This document shows, piece by piece, positions 1 through 14,610 of a stretch of DNA of 32,000 nucleotides. Source of the DNA: Candidatus Saccharimonadota bacterium (GTDB lineage: Bacteria > Bacteroidota > Bacteroidia > Cytophagales > Amoebophilaceae). The notes beneath the pieces are model-generated. The model ran no database searches. It worked only from the letters and a program-made list of their open reading frames with translations, and was not told the origin of the DNA. Made by a program: the position numbers and the translations under genes. The stretch is from NCBI RefSeq assembly GCF_003351905.1, contig NZ_CP022339.1:60001-92000 (forward strand), written 5' to 3'. Position 1 is the first letter of the stretch. Every line of letters begins with the position of its first letter.

Positions 1-150
1 ACACATTAAATATTTTATGATATTCTTAGCTTTATTTGATAGTTCATCTATGAAAAACTCATCGAATTCTACCTCTGACCTGTAATTAAAAAAAGGGTTA
101 TAAACAAACTCCTTCACTTCTTCTAGTTTATATTTTTTACTCATCTTCAT
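1..150 (-). CDS. Partial hypothetical protein, last visible gene of the tra-linked operon; continues beyond the left window edge
   Basis: My own translation of the minus strand from ATG at 150..148 gives MKMSKKYKLEEVKEFVYNPFFNYRSEVEFDEFFIDELSNKAKNIIKYLMC..., open to position 1. The start abuts the stop (151..153) of the upstream gene. No recognisable motif. Confidence 0.35.
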   Translation of the reverse strand, partial: MKMSKKYKLEEVKEFVYNPFFNYRSEVEFDEFFIDELSNKAKNIIKYLMC

Positions 151-1065
151 TTAAAATTTACTATTTCTTTTGATTTTACTTTTAACGATATGCTGTATTA
201 GATCATTGTTTAGCTTTTCACTATATAGCTCTGCAATAGCTTCTTTATCTTTTTTAGACACCTCTTCCGATTCCACTTGCAGTCTATTGATACGTTCTAC
301 AAGTTCTCCCATATCTAAGATGTTTTTGTTTTTAATACTTTCTAGTTGAAAGTATTTTACTGGATCATTTTTGTAAAAATTAGGATTAGATAGCGTTTTA
401 TCTATTTTTTTATTTTGAATCTCTAGATTTTTGATCTGTTCTTTGTAGACTGGAATCAGTCTATTATTGGCCTCTTTAGAGGCAATCTTTATCTGATCTG
501 ATCTACGCAACTCTCTTTGAATATCTGAGCAAAGGGAATTTAAGCTTTTTGGTGGCTTTGTGCTTAGGAAATTACTACTTCTACCCGTAAAAGAATCTAC
601 TTTACCTAATAGATATTTTTCTCTGTAACAGGAAAAAGAACAATATCTTTTAAGCTCTCTAGTACAATCTAAACTAGGAATATAGTCACTTGGATTCAAA
701 CTAATGCCACTTATTTTTTCTGATATACCCAGGGCTACTTTACCATATTTCGCATCAGATAGATCTTTGAATAATGATTTACCTTGATTTTTAATAGAAT
801 TAGCCTCTTCTACACTCTTTTTTAGTTTTCTCATACTATCAGCCGCATCCTTCATTTGTGCTAAAACATTACTAGAGGTACCTACTTGCTCTTCCATTAA
901 CTGAGCTGTTTTTTCTTCTGGAGATAGACCAGGTATCCACTTCTTTAATCCGTTAGGTAGGATTTTGTTTAATCCTGATTTGATAGAAGATCCTATACTT
1001 GCTGAAGAAGTTACAGGAATGAACAGGCATAACCAAACTAGACCATATTTTTTACACTTATTCAT
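151..1065 (-). CDS. Secreted coiled-coil protein of unknown function, distal gene of the tra operon
   Basis: 304-aa ORF. N-terminal signal-like segment MNKCKKYGLVWLCLFIPVTSSASIG, K/E/L-rich heptad-like C-terminal half. The start overlaps the stop of the TraM-like gene by 4 nt (1062..1065), suggesting translational coupling. Confidence 0.6.
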   Translation of the reverse strand: MNKCKKYGLVWLCLFIPVTSSASIGSSIKSGLNKILPNGLKKWIPGLSPEEKTAQLMEEQVGTSSNVLAQMKDAADSMRKLKKSVEEANSIKNQGKSLFKDLSDAKYGKVALGISEKISGISLNPSDYIPSLDCTRELKRYCSFSCYREKYLLGKVDSFTGRSSNFLSTKPPKSLNSLCSDIQRELRRSDQIKIASKEANNRLIPVYKEQIKNLEIQNKKIDKTLSNPNFYKNDPVKYFQLESIKNKNILDMGELVERINRLQVESEEVSKKDKEAIAELYSEKLNNDLIQHIVKSKIKRNSKF

Positions 1066-12078: not shown

Positions 12079-13262
12079 CTATCTAGATCCAAAAATCAAC
12101 TCTATCTCTTCTTCTATTTTCCTTTGATTATCTATAATATCTTCATTACCAACCCTTTTAACATCTGGTAAATCTTTTAACAACTCATTTTTAAAGTTTT
12201 TGTCATAAGACGATACTTCTTTGAACTGTTCTTGAAAAAAGACATTATCACTTTCTACTACTTTCCCAGCAAAAAATCCTACATCAAAACCTGAAAACTC
12301 ATTAGGTTTTATCAACTCTTGTTCATGTATAGTAATATTTTCACCATGCGTAGTATGGTGACCTTGAGTGTTACTGTGACAAGTTTCTGAGGAACTTGTA
12401 GACTTGATCATGTGTTCTTCCTTACCAAATATAGAACTGGCATATCTAGAAGACTCCACACCACAGTTGCCCATAAATTGATTACTTAGGGTACCTTGTA
12501 TCTTTTTAGCACCTATACTGCCATAGGTATCTTCTAATTGGGCATTCGATTGTATACAAGAAATGGTACTAATACCGTATTTTCTAGCCGTAGCTGGAAC
12601 TTCTGCAAGACCTGGGATGTATAAGGTAGGTAGCTCATCTATAGCCACAAAACTCTTCGTTCTATTATGGCCATACATAGATTTAAAACATATGGTAATC
12701 AGTAAAGATATAACTGGACTGAAAGCTGATTTAGCAGGTGGGAAATTGCCTATACAGAGTATGGTTGGAGCAATATTATCGTTGATAGTTAGTTGTACTT
12801 CATTTTTACTCAAGACCCAAAATAAGTTCTTATCAATTAAAGGTTGTAAGCTTGTTTTAAAACTTGCTATAATACCTATTAACTGACCTGATGATTTATC
12901 TCCGCCTTTATAAGCATCAAATATTGACCTAGCATAGGAATAGGCTTCTGAGTCTTGTTCTATGATACTTAATATTTTAGGCTTAGTAGCTAACGTTACT
13001 ACATGCGGCAACGTACAACAACTCTTTGCCTGATTGGATGAGTAAACGATAATGCCTTTTAGAAGGGATTTAGTACTTAAATACCAAAAATCATCTTTCC
13101 CTCCAGGATTAAGATTTTTTAATAATACAGTCACATATTCCTCTAAATAGGATCTATCTGATATGTATATAGGATCAATAGGATTGATACGAATACTCTT
13201 GTTAAGATTTGTAAAATTAATCGTATTAAACGAAACATTTTTCCTGTCCTTTTCTGGGTAAT
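12079..13262 (-). pseudogene. 5'-truncated type IV coupling protein (TraG/TraD/VirD4 family) fragment, decapitated by an IS256-family insertion
   Basis: The track ORF 12079..13287 starts with TTG, and its first 8 codons (MTQFIEHF) lie inside the IS terminal inverted repeat. The retained part has the Walker-B region FVAIDELPTLYIPGL and ARKYGISTISCIQSNAQLEDTYG, typical of T4CPs. It has no Walker A and no N-terminal TM segments. Confidence 0.75.
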
Positions 13263-14610
13263 GGAAGTGTTCGATGAACTGTGTCAATTCCTAAAAGAGT
13301 TATAAATTAAATAATTAACGACTAAAGGTTTTTAGACATGGAAGAGCATATGAACAATGATTACGTTGGTTTAGTAGATTATAAAGATTTGGAGGAAAAC
13401 ATTTTGTCCTCTATCCGTTTAGGTAAGCCATTGACAGGCAAAGGTGGGGCATTAACCCCTCTGATAAAAAAGCTTCTAGAGGCGAGTCTAGAAGGTGAGA
13501 TGGCCCATCATTTGTCTAGTGAGAGGATAGTAAATAATCGAAGGAATGGTAAAAGTTGTAAAACTTTTCGTACAAGCTCTGGTTCCTTTGACTTGGTAAC
13601 CCCTAGAGATAGAACAGGTAGTTTCGATCCACAAATAGTTAAAAAGCGTCAAACAAATCTTCATCCTGAACTGGAAACCAAGATTTTAAGCATGTTTTCT
13701 AGTGGTATGAGCTATAAGTCTATAGCCGCTCATATTGAAGAAATCTATGATCATAAAGTATCAGCTGCTGAAATATCGGCTATTACAGATAGCTTATTGC
13801 CAGTAATAAATGAATGGCGTAACCGTCCTCTTCAATCGGTCTACCCCATAGTTTTTATGGATGGTATGTTTTTTAAGGTTAAAGAAGATGGGAAATGTGT
13901 AAGTAAATGTCTGTATACCTTATTAGGCATAGATCAAGAGGGTAAAAAAGAAGTGTTAGGCTTCTATTTATCTGAAAGTGAGGGAGCTAATTTCTGGTTA
14001 GGTGTACTCAACGAGCTTAAGGCAAGGGGTGTAGAAGATATCCTTATTGCCTGTGTTGATGGACTAAAAAGCTTCCCTGCAGCCATTAATAACGCTTTTC
14101 CCAATGCACAGGTGCAGGTCTGTGTAGTACACCAGATACGCAATTCCATCAAGTATGTAGCTAGCAAAGATGTAAAACGTTTTTTAACTGATTTAAAGCA
14201 AGTATATCAAGCTTCAAATAAGGAAGTTGCAGAACATTATCTATTGGAATTAGAAGAAAAATGGGGAGAAAAGTATCCAATGGTTATCAAATCTTGGCAA
14301 AACAACTGGGAGCATTTGTCTGGTTACTTTAAATATTCAGATCCTGTCAGAAGGCTAATTTATACGACCAATCCAATAGAAAGCCTCCATAGACAAATTA
14401 GACAGTTTACCAAAACAAAAGGGGCATTTACCAGTGTCAATGCTTTGTATAAATCAGTATATTGCGCTATCAAGAAGATGGAGGATAAATGGACTATGCC
14501 GCTCAGAAACTGGGCACTGACCATATCTCAGATAGACATCTTTTTTCCTGGAAGAGTCAAATCTGAGTTGACGTGAAGCCCGAAACTGACACAGTTAATT
14601 GAACACTTCC
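13263..14610 (+). mobile_element. IS256-family insertion sequence (about 1.35 kb)
   Basis: Imperfect terminal inverted repeats: GGAAGTGTTCGATGAACTGTGTCA (13263..13286) versus the reverse complement of TGACACAGTTAATTGAACACTTCC (14587..14610), 22/24 matching. It encloses a single mutator-type transposase gene. No flanking direct target duplication is visible. Confidence 0.85.
13338..14576 (+). CDS. IS256-family (Mutator-type) DDE transposase
   Basis: 412 aa. Family-typical blocks: GGALTPLIKKLLEASLEGEM..HL, RRNGKS.KT, SFDPQIVKKRQ, VFMDGMFFKV, IACVDGLKSFP.AI...FP.AQVQ.C.VH..RN, TTNPIESLHRQIR..TK. Confidence 0.9.
   Translation: MEEHMNNDYVGLVDYKDLEENILSSIRLGKPLTGKGGALTPLIKKLLEASLEGEMAHHLSSERIVNNRRNGKSCKTFRTSSGSFDLVTPRDRTGSFDPQIVKKRQTNLHPELETKILSMFSSGMSYKSIAAHIEEIYDHKVSAAEISAITDSLLPVINEWRNRPLQSVYPIVFMDGMFFKVKEDGKCVSKCLYTLLGIDQEGKKEVLGFYLSESEGANFWLGVLNELKARGVEDILIACVDGLKSFPAAINNAFPNAQVQVCVVHQIRNSIKYVASKDVKRFLTDLKQVYQASNKEVAEHYLLELEEKWGEKYPMVIKSWQNNWEHLSGYFKYSDPVRRLIYTTNPIESLHRQIRQFTKTKGAFTSVNALYKSVYCAIKKMEDKWTMPLRNWALTISQIDIFFPGRVKSELT

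Follow-up and report, generated by a model that had tools for sequence, protein, structure and literature searches.

Positions 3-13261 of the window (the whole stretch of 32,000 nucleotides that was analysed) probably represent a chromosomal copy of a Cardinium plasmid conjugation module, which was recently disabled and is now in mid-decay. The stretch belongs to Cardinium cSfur, a strain that lives as a symbiont in the planthopper Sogatella furcifera, and its VirB4 of 815 aa is 100% identical to AXI23898 of this strain. The block carries 12 genes in one direction on the minus strand and a 13th gene cut by the window edge (Table 1). The sequence-only reading had counted eight co-directional genes, which is too few; the ORFs that it described are present on the minus strand with correct coordinates. 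Besides the T4CP gene, 11 genes are open at full or near-full length, Ank-RING being shorter than its orthologues. Three of the four overlaps claimed earlier were found directly, with 23 nt at TraF/VirB4 (6701-6723), 14 nt at TraK/TraN and 4 nt between TraM and the 304-aa gene. The fourth, at VirB4/TraJ, is 8 nt given the TraJ ATG at 4283, the start of the orthologues, whose overlap with VirB4 is also 8 nt. TraE and TraF are 14 nt apart, TraN and TraM 5 nt, and a spacer of 84 nt separates TraJ from TraK.

Table 1. Features of the block and of its IS-bounded end, with positions in the window
Feature	Position	Strand	Evidence or remark
121-aa ORF, first 47 codons	4..144	-	tblastn 81% identity to p_B NMK33_06225; edge-cut
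Secreted 304-aa coiled-coil protein (CE557_046), last conserved T4SS-core gene	151..1065	-	signal peptide
TraM, VirB10-like, N-terminal TM helix	1062..1943	-	PF12508 2.7e-25, 90 bits, above gathering threshold
TraN-like, VirB9-like, signal peptide	1949..2740	-	hhalign on family
TraK-like, VirB8-like, bitopic	2727..3389	-	TIGR03781 1e-4; VirB8 1.7e-3
Palindrome TCCTTAC-NNN-GTAAGGA in TraJ/TraK spacer	3438..3454		conserved
TraJ-like polytopic membrane protein, VirB6-like	3474..4283	-	hhalign; longest ORF would reach 4325
VirB4/TraG ATPase, 815 aa, Walker A and B intact	4276..6723	-	PF19044 1.8e-58
TraF-like small membrane protein, VirB3 position	6701..7024	-	position and conservation
TraE-like pilin, VirB2-like	7039..7281	-	DUF4134 4.8e-4
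Palindrome TCCTTAC-NNN-GTAAGGA, second copy	7305..7321		24 nt upstream of TraE start
844-aa lipoprotein, C-terminal half coiled-coil	7413..9947	-	lipobox signal peptide in all orthologues
173-aa small outer-membrane-type protein (OMP), C-terminus ...RITF	10038..10559	-	PF10626 3.3e-4
Ank-RING lipoprotein (CE557_056), orthologue of pCher CAHE_p0026	10621..11991	-	Ank 5e-30, zf-RING 1e-7
Bacteroidetes-type promoter consensus match (TTTG...TAnnTTTG)	12019..12052	-	ends 27 nt upstream of Ank-RING start codon (11991)
T4CP remnant, VirD4/TraG-MobC type, residues 219-616	12079..13261	-	Walker B kept; TM anchor and Walker A absent
IS256-family element, 1350 bp, complete	13262..14611	+	PF00872 1.2e-98; transposase gene 13338-14576
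comM 3' fragment, Mg-chelatase C-terminal domain	14649..14939	+	PF13335 7e-30; far side of IS

The block was compared with its relatives on plasmids and contigs. The window is collinear with p_B of the Dermatophagoides farinae Cardinium from 3 to 13262 at 86-91% nucleotide identity, with 76% across Ank-RING and short unaligned gaps. Against pCher of cEper1 (CAHE_p0015-p0033) the identity is 68-75% across most of the block; no nucleotide-level alignment was obtained for the genes of the OMP and the lipoprotein. The genes, order, orientation and overlaps of both plasmids match the window from the 121-aa ORF through the T4CP, and both palindromes, the one before TraE and the one between TraJ and TraK, are shared as well. 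The complete copies (pCher and p_B module 1) begin with the MobV-toprim relaxase, a 616-aa T4CP, the lipoprotein Ank-RING, the small OMP and a lipoprotein of ~830 aa, and continue with TraE, TraF, VirB4, TraJ, TraK, TraN, TraM and the secreted 304-aa protein, after which the 121-aa ORF comes on p_B. On the Cardinium plasmids the 13-gene block adjoins intact genes for MobV relaxase, T4CP and primase, and in the elements that share its gene order MobV relaxase and full T4CP lie upstream wherever the contig extends that far. VirB4, T4CP and often MobV of the relatives are apparently on the same contigs, as matched on longest-contig size. The cEhis1 contig is collinear with the window in part, and homologous modules also occur on several metagenomic contigs. 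In all, 6 independent elements share this gene order, with Ank-RING, OMP and lipoprotein in place. These three genes had been read as hints of exaptation, but they are conserved plasmid-module members in at least 6 independent elements and not local insertions. Unlike pCher and p_B, the window copy is chromosomal. Missing from it are T4CP residues 1-218, the upstream small ORFs, the VapE primase and the MobV-toprim relaxase, and also the extra Ank gene that pCher and cEhis1 carry at the TraJ/TraK junction.

The T4CP stump (PF02534/PF12696, 1e-17) equals residues 219-616 of its 616-aa counterpart on p_B, and its match to the MobC model, which has 655 positions, is confined to 253-639. The Walker A of the p_B protein (GGPGSGKT, about 167-174) is absent from it along with the TM segments. 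Nucleotide homology to the plasmid ends at 13262, where the IS inverted repeat begins, and IS256 stands in place of T4CP codons 1-218 and of all that lay further upstream; the annotated 402-aa ORF opens with codons that belong to the IS end. The earlier description of a coupling-protein homologue without TM anchor and Walker A, with an IS256 end at its 5' side, is confirmed, and the IS256 boundary is exact. The 28-bp inverted repeats (13262-13289 and 14584-14611) are 89% complementary, and no target-site duplication was seen between the flanks CTGGGTAA and AAAAAATG. As genes are truncated on both IS flanks, IS-mediated recombination or deletion is indicated. It is highly improbable that the T4CP/IS256/comM junction was misassembled at a repeated IS and that the real locus holds a simple insertion or an intact T4CP. 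In this IS-rich genome the 1.35-kb element is a multi-copy repeat, and the lack of target duplication together with unrelated truncated flanks would fit a mis-join; however, the plasmid T4CP homology stops at the first IS base, so that the gene is cut by the IS end regardless, IS-mediated rearrangement is expected in such a genome, and the 402-aa remnant is called by RefSeq and GenBank alike. The statement that no relaxase is in view was borne out, since tblastn of the window gave no relaxase remnant. For an intact T4CP plus relaxase on the left flank the answer is negative as well, synteny and the published gene list placing a recombinase, transposases and SMI1/KNR4 there.

The complete plasmid module comprises a DNA-processing half with VapE/toprim primase, MobV-toprim relaxase and 616-aa membrane-anchored T4CP, the oriT of the relaxase presumably lying in the divergent intergenic region. 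Its channel half runs in the T4CP direction with Ank-RING, OMP, large lipoprotein and the compact Cytophagales-type MPF_B core. In cSfur, recombination between IS256 copies probably fused the module to the comM fragment at T4CP codon 219, and the T4CP anchor and Walker A, the relaxase and the oriT region were deleted or displaced. Alone, the window copy has no capacity to recruit or process DNA. An internal promoter ahead of Ank-RING probably still drives the 11 remaining genes, because a consensus match lies there and the pCher orthologues are transcribed in wasps. The whole 32 kb contains only one further match to this consensus, upstream of tRNA-His, which makes 2 in all, and the match before Ank-RING is conserved in p_B. 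The palindrome in the TraJ/TraK spacer, with a chance expectation of none in the window, is carried by p_B modules in the same spacer, and the one upstream of TraE is also found in L001, L026, L027, L029 and L030.

The channel proteins were identified by profile searches and profile comparison. VirB4, TraM and T4CP were assigned by Pfam as the sequence-only reading proposed, and TraK, TraE and the TraO-like OMP gave profile matches below threshold only (E 1e-4 to 5e-4). The catalytic motifs of VirB4 sit in invariant alignment columns, and its Walker A GPSGSGKS (residues 432-439) does lie at 5407-5430. The identities of TraJ, TraK and TraN are backed by hhalign: TraJ reached 95% with its Spirosoma counterpart and 52% with the canonical protein, TraK 100% and 63%, and the TraN family 97% with the DUF4138 protein of Spirosoma and 81% with the canonical one. 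Pfam search of the window TraN gave no direct match, and type-2 TraN homologues match DUF4138 above the gathering threshold (2.8e-9). TraM reached 96% to canonical TraM, and TraF gave a weak 14% to Spirosoma TraF. Type-2 TraE homologues match TrbC/VirB2 at 7e-6. Homologues of the 304-aa protein come after TraM in type-1, type-2, L006 and L007 loci; long helices are predicted for it by AF2 with an overall pLDDT of only 57.9, and it has no match in Pfam, PDB or among canonical Tra proteins.

MPF_B systems are not known to carry VirB11, and they use a MobC-type T4CP. The CTnDOT-type MPF_B of the Hymenobacter plasmid cluster L032 has homologous VirB4/TraG, TraM, TraN, TraK, TraJ and TraE in the order E-F-G...J-K. 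Compared with canonical MPF_B, the window copy scores far under the curated TIGRFAM cut-offs, has the order K-N-M and not K-M-N, holds no TraH, TraI, TraL, TraP or TraQ equivalents, and adds a lineage-specific 304-aa secreted protein; the relaxase partner of such modules is a MOBV-toprim fusion. The claimed lack of TraO is not secure, the small OMP being a weak TraO candidate (3/7 members of its family match PF10626). Spirosoma linguale pSLIN02 (Slin_6917-6925), from a free-living host, carries the same compact TraE-TraF-VirB4-J-K-N(DUF4138)-M(PF12508) core with K-N-M order, followed by two unassigned genes. Its VirB4 is about 29% identical to the window VirB4, and it has no detectable homologue of the 304-aa protein, OMP, large lipoprotein or Ank-RING. 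The compact set and K-N-M order are thus ancestral to this Cytophagales-type T4SS lineage, and the operon, earlier called streamlined, is not symbiont-streamlined.

Each accessory protein has a Sec or lipoprotein signal. Among the Ank-RING orthologues the lipoprotein signal is found in 6/6 and the RING-H2 motif in 5/6; the protein is 456 aa here and 531-614 in orthologues. Its link to CAHE_p0026, a published CI candidate with high expression, was taken from the orthology table published for cSfur. The 844-aa lipoprotein, without match in Pfam and PDB searches, is fast-evolving (dN/dS 0.39-0.48) and keeps its position in 6 elements.

Selection was analysed on the window branch. For the nine tra-core, OMP and 304-aa genes dN/dS is 0.13 (71 nonsynonymous : 145 synonymous), no higher than the 0.19 of the same genes on the plasmid branch. 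The T4CP stump showed 13 nonsynonymous and 12 synonymous changes, with an omega of 0.28 against 0.26 on the plasmid branch (probability under neutrality 0.002), and its 393 codons hold no stop codon or frameshift. Because the stump is open and has omega 0.28 on its own branch, the truncation is recent. The dN/dS check advocated earlier gave a low omega, but the stump looks just as selected, so that low omega reflects chiefly pre-truncation history. The genes are probably intact chiefly since the truncation is very recent, with piecemeal decay as in the sister modules. These lose components at random: VirB4, TraJ, TraN, lipoprotein and relaxase on p_B, and the whole channel on pcBtQ1. Of the 4 modules on p_B, one has a split lipoprotein and a split TraN, one a fragmented VirB4, TraJ and T4CP, one a fragmented relaxase, and one ends after TraE. 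In pcBtQ1 the primase, MobV and T4CP are kept, and gldKLMN stands where the channel half would be. The proposal of a conjugative element in mid-decay in an IS-ridden genome is favoured by the comparative evidence of plasmid blocks with relaxase, T4CP and primase and by the IS256 end. As a separate observation, the 11 genes open at or near orthologue length and the omega of 0.13 speak against pure decay. With a uniform prior on truncation time, 13 kb against 1.2 kb intact favours channel selection about 11:1, a rough and assumption-dependent value.

cSfur has three clusters with intact VirB4, and the eight-gene core is annotated as CDSs in two. In the part of the genome consulted, an intact T4CP is apparently absent; only two T4CP genes were found, one N-terminally and one C-terminally truncated. 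In the second core (CE557_832-839, copy B) all eight genes are annotated CDSs, the length being checked for the 817-aa VirB4 alone, and T4CP and accessory paralogues (Ank-RING, OMP, lipoprotein) are not among the listed neighbours. Its VirB4 is about 11% apart from the window copy in amino acids, as distant as the mite plasmid, and neither cSfur VirB4 is faster in protein rate than the plasmid copy. In an Amoebophilaceae MAG, uvrB/mfd on one side and metG/leuS on the other flank an eight-gene core that is intact, and no T4CP lies closer than about 9 kb. The recurrent persistence of T4CP-less cores exceeds what a pure-decay model comfortably predicts.

These data bear on the explanation that the channel half is kept by selection for a T4CP-independent job, such as bringing Sec-exported envelope proteins (the E3-ligase-like Ank-RING, 844-aa lipoprotein) to the surface or host cytoplasm or forming a pilus/adhesin that contacts the host. 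It is unlikely. The clusters with intact VirB4 beside truncated T4CP genes, the low window-branch omega, the unaccelerated VirB4 proteins, the promoter-like site outlasting the truncation and the orphan core amid housekeeping genes argue for it, and the accessory Sec/lipoprotein signals would make a T4CP unneeded. Bordetella Ptl, Helicobacter ComB and Brucella VirB likewise are channels without a dedicated coupling ATPase, and Ptl exports a Sec-dependent periplasmic substrate; they differ in being MPF_T and experimentally established, whereas the window copy lost its T4CP by a visible recent IS event. On the other hand, to our knowledge there is no MPF_B-type effector system, conjugation explains the gene origin given the plasmid copies, the stump looks as selected as the channel, copy B shows that the proposed substrates do not always stay with the channel, and channel genes are freely lost in p_B and pcBtQ1. 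Effector delivery is moreover credited to the Cardinium T6SS-iv/AFP-like contractile injector (PMC3486910, PMC5698495). The exaptation alternative of the sequence-only reading is thus weakened, three of its premises failing, and keeps the three VirB4 clusters without intact T4CP and the branch omega on its side.

Quite doubtful is conjugation in trans, by which a coupling protein and relaxase encoded elsewhere (the type-2 element with its full-length MobV, or an undetected plasmid or variant) would send DNA through this MPF from one Cardinium cell to another in the same host cell. A full-length MobV-toprim relaxase of 646 aa (P0293) exists in cSfur, and its gene list shows two genes for a 'plasmid recombination enzyme' in the neighbourhood of the type-2 VirB4. 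Against this, the T4CP of the third, type-2 cluster lacks its C-terminal 154 residues and ends at 462 of 616, and type-2 and type-1 proteins share 48-58% identity, making cross-talk doubtful. The cSfur genome paper reports no plasmid, and no type-1 relaxase of cSfur is among the MobV homologues. The two cSfur copies and the mite plasmid copy are nearly equally distant from one another, which would suit such transfer and suggests past horizontal exchange of the modules between Cardinium lineages.

The module also resembles RAGE (Rickettsiales amplified genetic elements) of Rickettsia, Orientia and Tisiphia, likewise multi-copy conjugative T4SS in IS-rich obligate intracellular genomes with ankyrin-type cargo and patchy pseudogenisation. 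RAGE is well described, and the Cardinium modules are undiscussed as T4SS in the searched literature. RAGE belongs to an unrelated T4SS class, an F-type MPF with a Ti-type relaxosome in another phylum, whereas the Cardinium modules are MPF_B-like with MOBV.

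The minus-strand block at 3-13261 of the window, in cSfur, the Cardinium of the planthopper Sogatella furcifera (chromosome of 1,103,593 bp), is a degraded member of a Cardinium family of conjugation modules. It is probably the channel half of a plasmid module that integrated and was recently orphaned, and is now heading to decay. The sequence-only reading had described a T4SS operon with a truncated coupling protein (T4CP), and this basic observation was confirmed by the ORFs, the junctions and the IS256 boundary; the ORFs, overlaps and spacers were all borne out, and the position given for the VirB4 Walker A motif (5407-5430) was correct. 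Its count of eight co-directional genes was too low, as the block has 12 genes and a 13th, represented by its first 47 codons, is cut by the left edge. The features are summarized in the table, with CE557_046 to CE557_059 numbered from the cSfur genome paper tables.

Features of the conjugation block, its surroundings and the related palindromes (window positions unless a locus is named)
Feature	Position	Strand	Identifier	Remark
304-aa protein		-	CE557_046	
TraM		-	CE557_047	
TraN		-	CE557_048	
TraK		-	CE557_049	
TraJ		-	CE557_050	
VirB4	4276-6723	-	CE557_051; AXI23898	815 aa; 100% identity to the cSfur protein
TraF		-	CE557_052	
TraE		-	CE557_053	
Large lipoprotein		-	CE557_054	844 aa
OMP		-	CE557_055	173 aa
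Ank-RING	10621-11991	-	CE557_056	
T4CP remnant	12079-13287	-	CE557_057; AXI23904	402 aa; annotated 'traG' in cSfur
IS256-family element, inverted repeats	13262-13289, 14584-14611			1350 bp; repeats 28 bp each
IS256 transposase, Mutator-type DDE	13338-14576			PF00872, 331 bits, 1e-98
comM fragment			CE557_059	
prfB (RF-2) ORF	16136-16984	+		
DUF1609 protein	18921-20714	+		597 aa
VapE-like ORF	24182-24556	+	CE557_069	124 aa
pgk	24563-25771			
Promoter consensus match	12019-12052	-		ends 27 nt upstream of Ank-RING start codon; conserved in p_B
Same match with following palindrome	11995-12052	-		
TCCTTAC-N3-GTAAGGA	3438-3454, 7305-7321			
TCCTTAC-N3-GTAAGGA	L001 9397-9413			
TCCTTAC-N3-GTAAGGA	L026 19377-19393			
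TCCTTAC-N3-GTAAGGA	L029 9397-9413			
TCCTTAC-N3-GTAAGGA	L027 19403-19419, 23282-23298			p_B
TCCTTAC-N3-GTAAGGA	L033 17351-17367, 35731-35747			p_B

The block was found to be collinear over 3-13262 with p_B, a plasmid of the Dermatophagoides farinae Cardinium, at 86-91% nucleotide identity (76% over Ank-RING; short gaps do not align). Alignment with pCher, the plasmid of cEper1, covers most of the block at 68-75%, and parts align with a cEhis1 contig at 67-77%; two metagenomic contigs share its gene order at the protein level. The block carries the collinear set of the pCher/p_B type, namely T4CP, Ank-RING, OMP, lipoprotein, TraE to TraM, the 304-aa protein and a 121-aa protein. The loci extending far enough gave the order of the module as VapE/toprim primase, a divergent MobV-toprim relaxase, small ORFs, T4CP (616-634 aa), Ank-RING, the 173-aa OMP, the large lipoprotein (811-1004 aa), TraE, TraF, VirB4 and TraJ, an extra Ank gene only in pCher, cEhis1 and the related locus L029, then TraK, TraN and TraM, the 304-aa protein and the 121-aa protein. 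MOB-suite typing classed pCher as conjugative with a MOBV relaxase, and the longest contigs of VirB4, T4CP and often MobV in environmental relatives match in size, which suggests that these genes share contigs. The module order, the typing and the matching contigs therefore identify the ancestral unit as a conjugation module of plasmids, and the three secreted or eukaryote-like genes pointed out earlier are conserved members of it. A 'toprim domain-containing protein' (P0288) filed under the spider Trichonephila clavata, 68% identical to Cardinium MobV-toprim, was also met on a 309-kb contig, explained either by contamination from a symbiont or by its transfer into the spider assembly.

The earlier assignment of the genes to Tra families held in part: VirB4, TraM and T4CP were solid, TraK, TraE and OMP stayed below threshold, and TraN and TraJ had no direct match. 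VirB4, with invariant Walker A and B residues, matched PF19044 at 198.6 bits against a cut-off of 25.8 (1.8e-58). By profile scores it is a homologue of MPF_B/CTnDOT TraG outside the canonical subfamily, since the TIGR03783 subfamily model gave 172.8, below its cut-off of 261.55, and the TraC-F-type model scored slightly higher. TraM matched PF12508 at 90.1 bits against 25.1 (2.7e-25), and its TIGR03779 equivalog score of 53.6 was below the cut-off of 172. The T4CP remnant matched PF02534 and PF12696 and covers only positions 253-639 of the 655 of the MobC model. TraK reached 21.9 bits with TIGR03781 (cut-off 152) and TraE 20.8 bits with DUF4134 (cut-off 26.5); TraF had no match to DUF4133, TraN none in Pfam and TraJ no direct profile match. 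Family alignments from nine related loci were then compared by hhalign with the annotated proteins of the Hymenobacter CTn-type cluster (L032) and the Spirosoma plasmid pSLIN02 (L028). TraM found its expected partner at 96%, TraN the DUF4138 proteins at 97% and 81%, TraK its partners at 100% and 63% (the latter canonical TraK) and TraJ its partners at 95% and 52% (the latter canonical TraJ). For these four families the expected partner was the specific best match, every other pairing being at most 2%. Homologues from type-2 modules, the more distant ones, exceeded the DUF4138 gathering threshold for TraN and matched TrbC/VirB2 at 7e-6 for TraE. In the profile comparison the 304-aa protein, which might be VirB5-like, the OMP and the 844-aa lipoprotein matched no canonical Tra protein; PDB sequence searches with the lipoprotein, TraM and the 304-aa protein gave nothing, and single-sequence AlphaFold models were poor (pLDDT 57.9 for the 304-aa protein, 36.3 for the OMP). 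N-terminal TM helices were predicted for TraK and TraM, signal peptides for TraN and the 304-aa protein and a lipoprotein signal for the 844-aa protein. The predicted topology of the core fits a minimal VirB2/3/4/6/8/9/10 set. The mating-pair-formation set is complete, as all eight core genes (TraE, TraF, VirB4, TraJ, TraK, TraN, TraM and the 304-aa protein) reach the full length of their orthologues.

The canonical MPF_B/CTnDOT systems have TraH/I between G and J, the order K-(L)-M-N-O, and TraP/Q, whereas the block has the order E-F-G-J-K-N-M-304aa. The absence of TraH, I, L, P and Q claimed earlier was upheld at the block; for TraO, listed with them, the sole signal is a weak, sub-threshold match to the OMP, which is placed upstream. 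The canonical CTn-type cluster of Hymenobacter inserts three more genes between G and J and runs K-M-N, whereas pSLIN02 of Spirosoma, which is free-living, reads TraE-TraF-VirB4-J-K-N(DUF4138)-M(PF12508), with two unassigned genes in addition. This compact order places the Cardinium system in a compact Cytophagales sub-lineage of MPF_B, and the operon cannot be called streamlined, the compact set being ancestral and not a symbiont reduction. Two VirB4 peptide patterns also recovered VirB4-like genes with 23-30% identity from a dozen MAG contigs (L008-L019) of Bdellovibrionales, Pseudobdellovibrionaceae and Oligoflexia; these may represent a related lineage of compact T4SS among predatory bacteria.

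The truncation of the T4CP was analysed at its junction with IS256. Nucleotide homology to p_B stops at 13262, where the left inverted repeat begins, and the annotated TTG start of the remnant sits within this repeat. As had been read from the sequence, the TM segments and the Walker A motif (GGPGSGKT) are missing and IS256 occupies the 5' end; what remains is equivalent to residues 219-616 of the plasmid protein (616 aa), with Walker B present. No target-site duplication was found by an 8-9 bp criterion (flanks CTGGGTAA and AAAAAATG, eight bases differing), and the far side of the element is a 3' fragment of comM. The differing flanks and the comM fragment indicate recombination or deletion between IS copies and no simple insertion, and a missing duplication is expected once two IS copies recombine. 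It is highly improbable that the T4CP/IS256/comM junction is an assembly artefact. Recombination between the IS copies would have removed the front of the T4CP with the upstream region, leaving the channel half orphaned and bound for decay. The earlier statement that no relaxase is in view agreed with tblastn using the MobV proteins of pCher and p_B, which gave no match in the 32 kb; with the relaxase absent from the window and the T4CP not intact, the block is classed as not self-transmissible.

The remainder of the window is chromosomal (prfB, an asnC-type regulator, PLD, dciA, pgk, tRNA-His). CE557_069, which abuts pgk, resembles the first ~100 residues of the VapE/toprim primase of the plasmids with 38% identity and is an older remnant of plasmid DNA-processing genes, distinct from the block. 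It was rejected as the displaced other half of the block, as it has only 38% identity to the plasmid primases and the 9.5 kb between has no plasmid similarity except a transposase. The prfB ORF starts at PCRF-domain position 68, so its N-terminal part must lie in another frame upstream, either by the programmed +1 frameshift usual in RF-2 or by disruption. The 597-aa protein matches DUF1609 (2.1e-8), a family described from microsporidia, and may be a eukaryote-like or horizontally acquired gene.

Decay of the module elsewhere is indiscriminate as to component. The 125-kb p_B (CP101108.1; typed non-mobilizable in PLSDB) has four conjugation modules, each broken in different genes: one has lipoprotein and TraN split, one has VirB4, TraJ and T4CP in fragments, the one closest to the window has its relaxase in fragments, and one stops after TraE. 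This amplification and piecemeal decay is similar to that of RAGE of Rickettsiales. The plasmid pcBtQ1 of the whitefly Cardinium (L035 1893-14655) keeps primase VapE, MobV and T4CP and has the gliding/T9SS genes gldKLMN where Ank-RING and the channel genes would sit; it is the mirror image of the state of the window.

The age of the truncation was estimated from substitution patterns. Pairwise dN/dS against p_B was 0.00-0.25 for the tra core genes, 0.18 for the T4CP stump, 0.39 for the lipoprotein and 0.33 for Ank-RING, values which mix history before and after truncation and were superseded by parsimony-polarised branch counts with two closer outgroups. The nine genes (eight-gene core and OMP) showed 71 N : 145 S changes on the window branch (omega 0.13; plasmid branch 0.19). 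The stump, with the small count of 25 changes, showed 13 N : 12 S (omega 0.28; plasmid branch 0.26), a pattern having a probability of 0.002 under neutrality, and its 393 codons contain no stop or frameshift. The T4CP was therefore functional for almost all of the window branch and the truncation is recent. The low omega sought earlier as a mark of purifying selection on the tra ORFs was thus found, but it is mostly of pre-truncation origin and tells little about present selection.

This limit bears on the alternative that the channel half is retained for a T4CP-independent function, since low omega in the channel genes reveals little about what followed truncation. The cSfur inventory, built on cluster membership, homologue lists and the supplementary tables of the genome paper, speaks in its favour, as no intact coupling protein was found in these sources and all three VirB4 genes have all catalytic residues. 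The second copy (CE557_832-839) consists of the eight core genes only, with a VirB4 (AXI24618, 817 aa) 89% identical to that of the window, and beside it the published tables show neither a T4CP paralogue nor one of the lipoprotein, the OMP or Ank-RING. The VirB4 proteins of the two copies and the mite plasmid are about equidistant (~11% aa), and measured against outgroups neither of the two cSfur copies shows a faster rate. In the type-2 cluster, VirB4 (AXI24020) has 48% identity, the T4CP ends at residue 462 of 616 and two 'plasmid recombination enzyme' genes lie nearby; a full-length 646-aa MobV was recovered as well. Of the items named earlier for a genome-wide search, this inventory gave no full-length T4CP, a full-length MobV and two more VirB4 clusters; conjugation using the channel in trans is quite improbable. 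The Amoebophilaceae MAG L003 has an intact eight-gene core (9415-16496) running from TraE to a 288-aa protein; uvrB/mfd and metG/leuS flank it, only a transposase scrap lies beside it, and neither T4CP nor relaxase occurs within about 9 kb. For a Ptl/ComB-like mode of action, defined by export or uptake that needs no coupling protein, the intact cores lacking an intact T4CP in cSfur and L003 are circumstantial evidence. On the inventory and the L003 core the T4CP-independent role therefore stays a minority hypothesis, of low but appreciable probability. The exaptation proposed earlier is weakened: the truncated T4CP is a recent IS accident in an ordinary kind of element and is in itself no evidence of a new secretion function.

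cSfur induces cytoplasmic incompatibility (CI) in S. furcifera. The orthology table of the cSfur paper equates CE557_056 with CAHE_p0026, the RING/ankyrin protein of pCher, which is a leading Cardinium CI candidate and is highly expressed, male-biased and pseudogenised in the asymptomatic strain cBtQ1 (PMC5698495). The cSfur protein is intact with a conserved RING-H2 motif, which five of the six orthologues have; all six have an N-terminal lipoprotein-type signal, a feature not mentioned in the CI literature covered. Lipoprotein signals are present as well in the small additional Ank genes found where TraJ meets TraK. Export of Ank-RING is thus predicted to be Sec-dependent, and this predicted route argues against classical T4CP-mediated translocation and would be compatible with surface exposure or a Ptl-like path. 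In the T4CP-dependent effector systems Dot/Icm and VirB/D4, a working coupling protein handles cytosolic substrates that bear C-terminal signals, whereas the window has a truncated T4CP and candidate effectors (Ank-RING, extra Anks) with N-terminal lipoprotein signals. Ank-RING as a classical T4SS effector is unlikely, given the lipoprotein signal peptides in all orthologues. It also seems rather unlikely that the Amoebophilaceae core, after relaxase and T4CP loss, is kept under selection as a T4CP-independent envelope machine exposing or delivering Sec-exported lipoproteins, including Ank-RING, to the host cytoplasm; if true, a Bacteroidota-type T4SS would for the first time be seen in a host-directed role other than conjugation, and the E3-ligase-like CI candidate would gain a delivery route.

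Papers on Cardinium report no known secretion system beyond a phage-derived injector and Por genes (PMC3486910, PMC5698495, PMC9040572). The Cardinium literature, as far as searchable, does not describe the module as a T4SS and refers only to 'traG' or 'no known secretion system'; database annotation already names VirB4, TraM and MobV. The present results reveal a coherent T4SS conjugation module on both plasmids and chromosomes of Cardinium, with the relaxase on complete plasmid copies. It is a concrete vehicle for gene exchange between Cardinium strains sharing hosts, and Ank-RING sits inside it as a conserved lipoprotein-signalled gene.

The pCher orthologues are transcribed in wasps (cEper1; PMC5698495 supplement), with mean normalised counts of about 395 for VirB4, 543 for TraM, 697 for the lipoprotein, 371 for T4CP, 235 for MobV and 1154 for Ank-RING (PMC5698495). 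The Bacteroidetes promoter consensus TTTG-N15-23-TAnnTTTG has only two matches in the window, one before Ank-RING and the other preceding tRNA-His. The first is followed by the palindrome GCTATATTTATAAATATAG, both being conserved in p_B and partly in the compared locus L031. This match suggests that transcription of Ank-RING probably survives the loss of the upstream region, and possibly that of the genes downstream as well. A sigma-70 promoter scan of the window gave matches no commoner than in shuffled sequence, and an intrinsic-terminator scan (14 sites against 7.8 +/- 2.7 in shuffles) served only to spot palindromes. Upstream of TraE, the 7-3-7 palindrome TCCTTAC-N3-GTAAGGA is shared by five related elements, whose synonymous divergence is saturated, and in the window/p_B lineage it also occurs in the TraJ/TraK spacer; none would be expected by chance in the window, and it is a candidate operator or mRNA hairpin.
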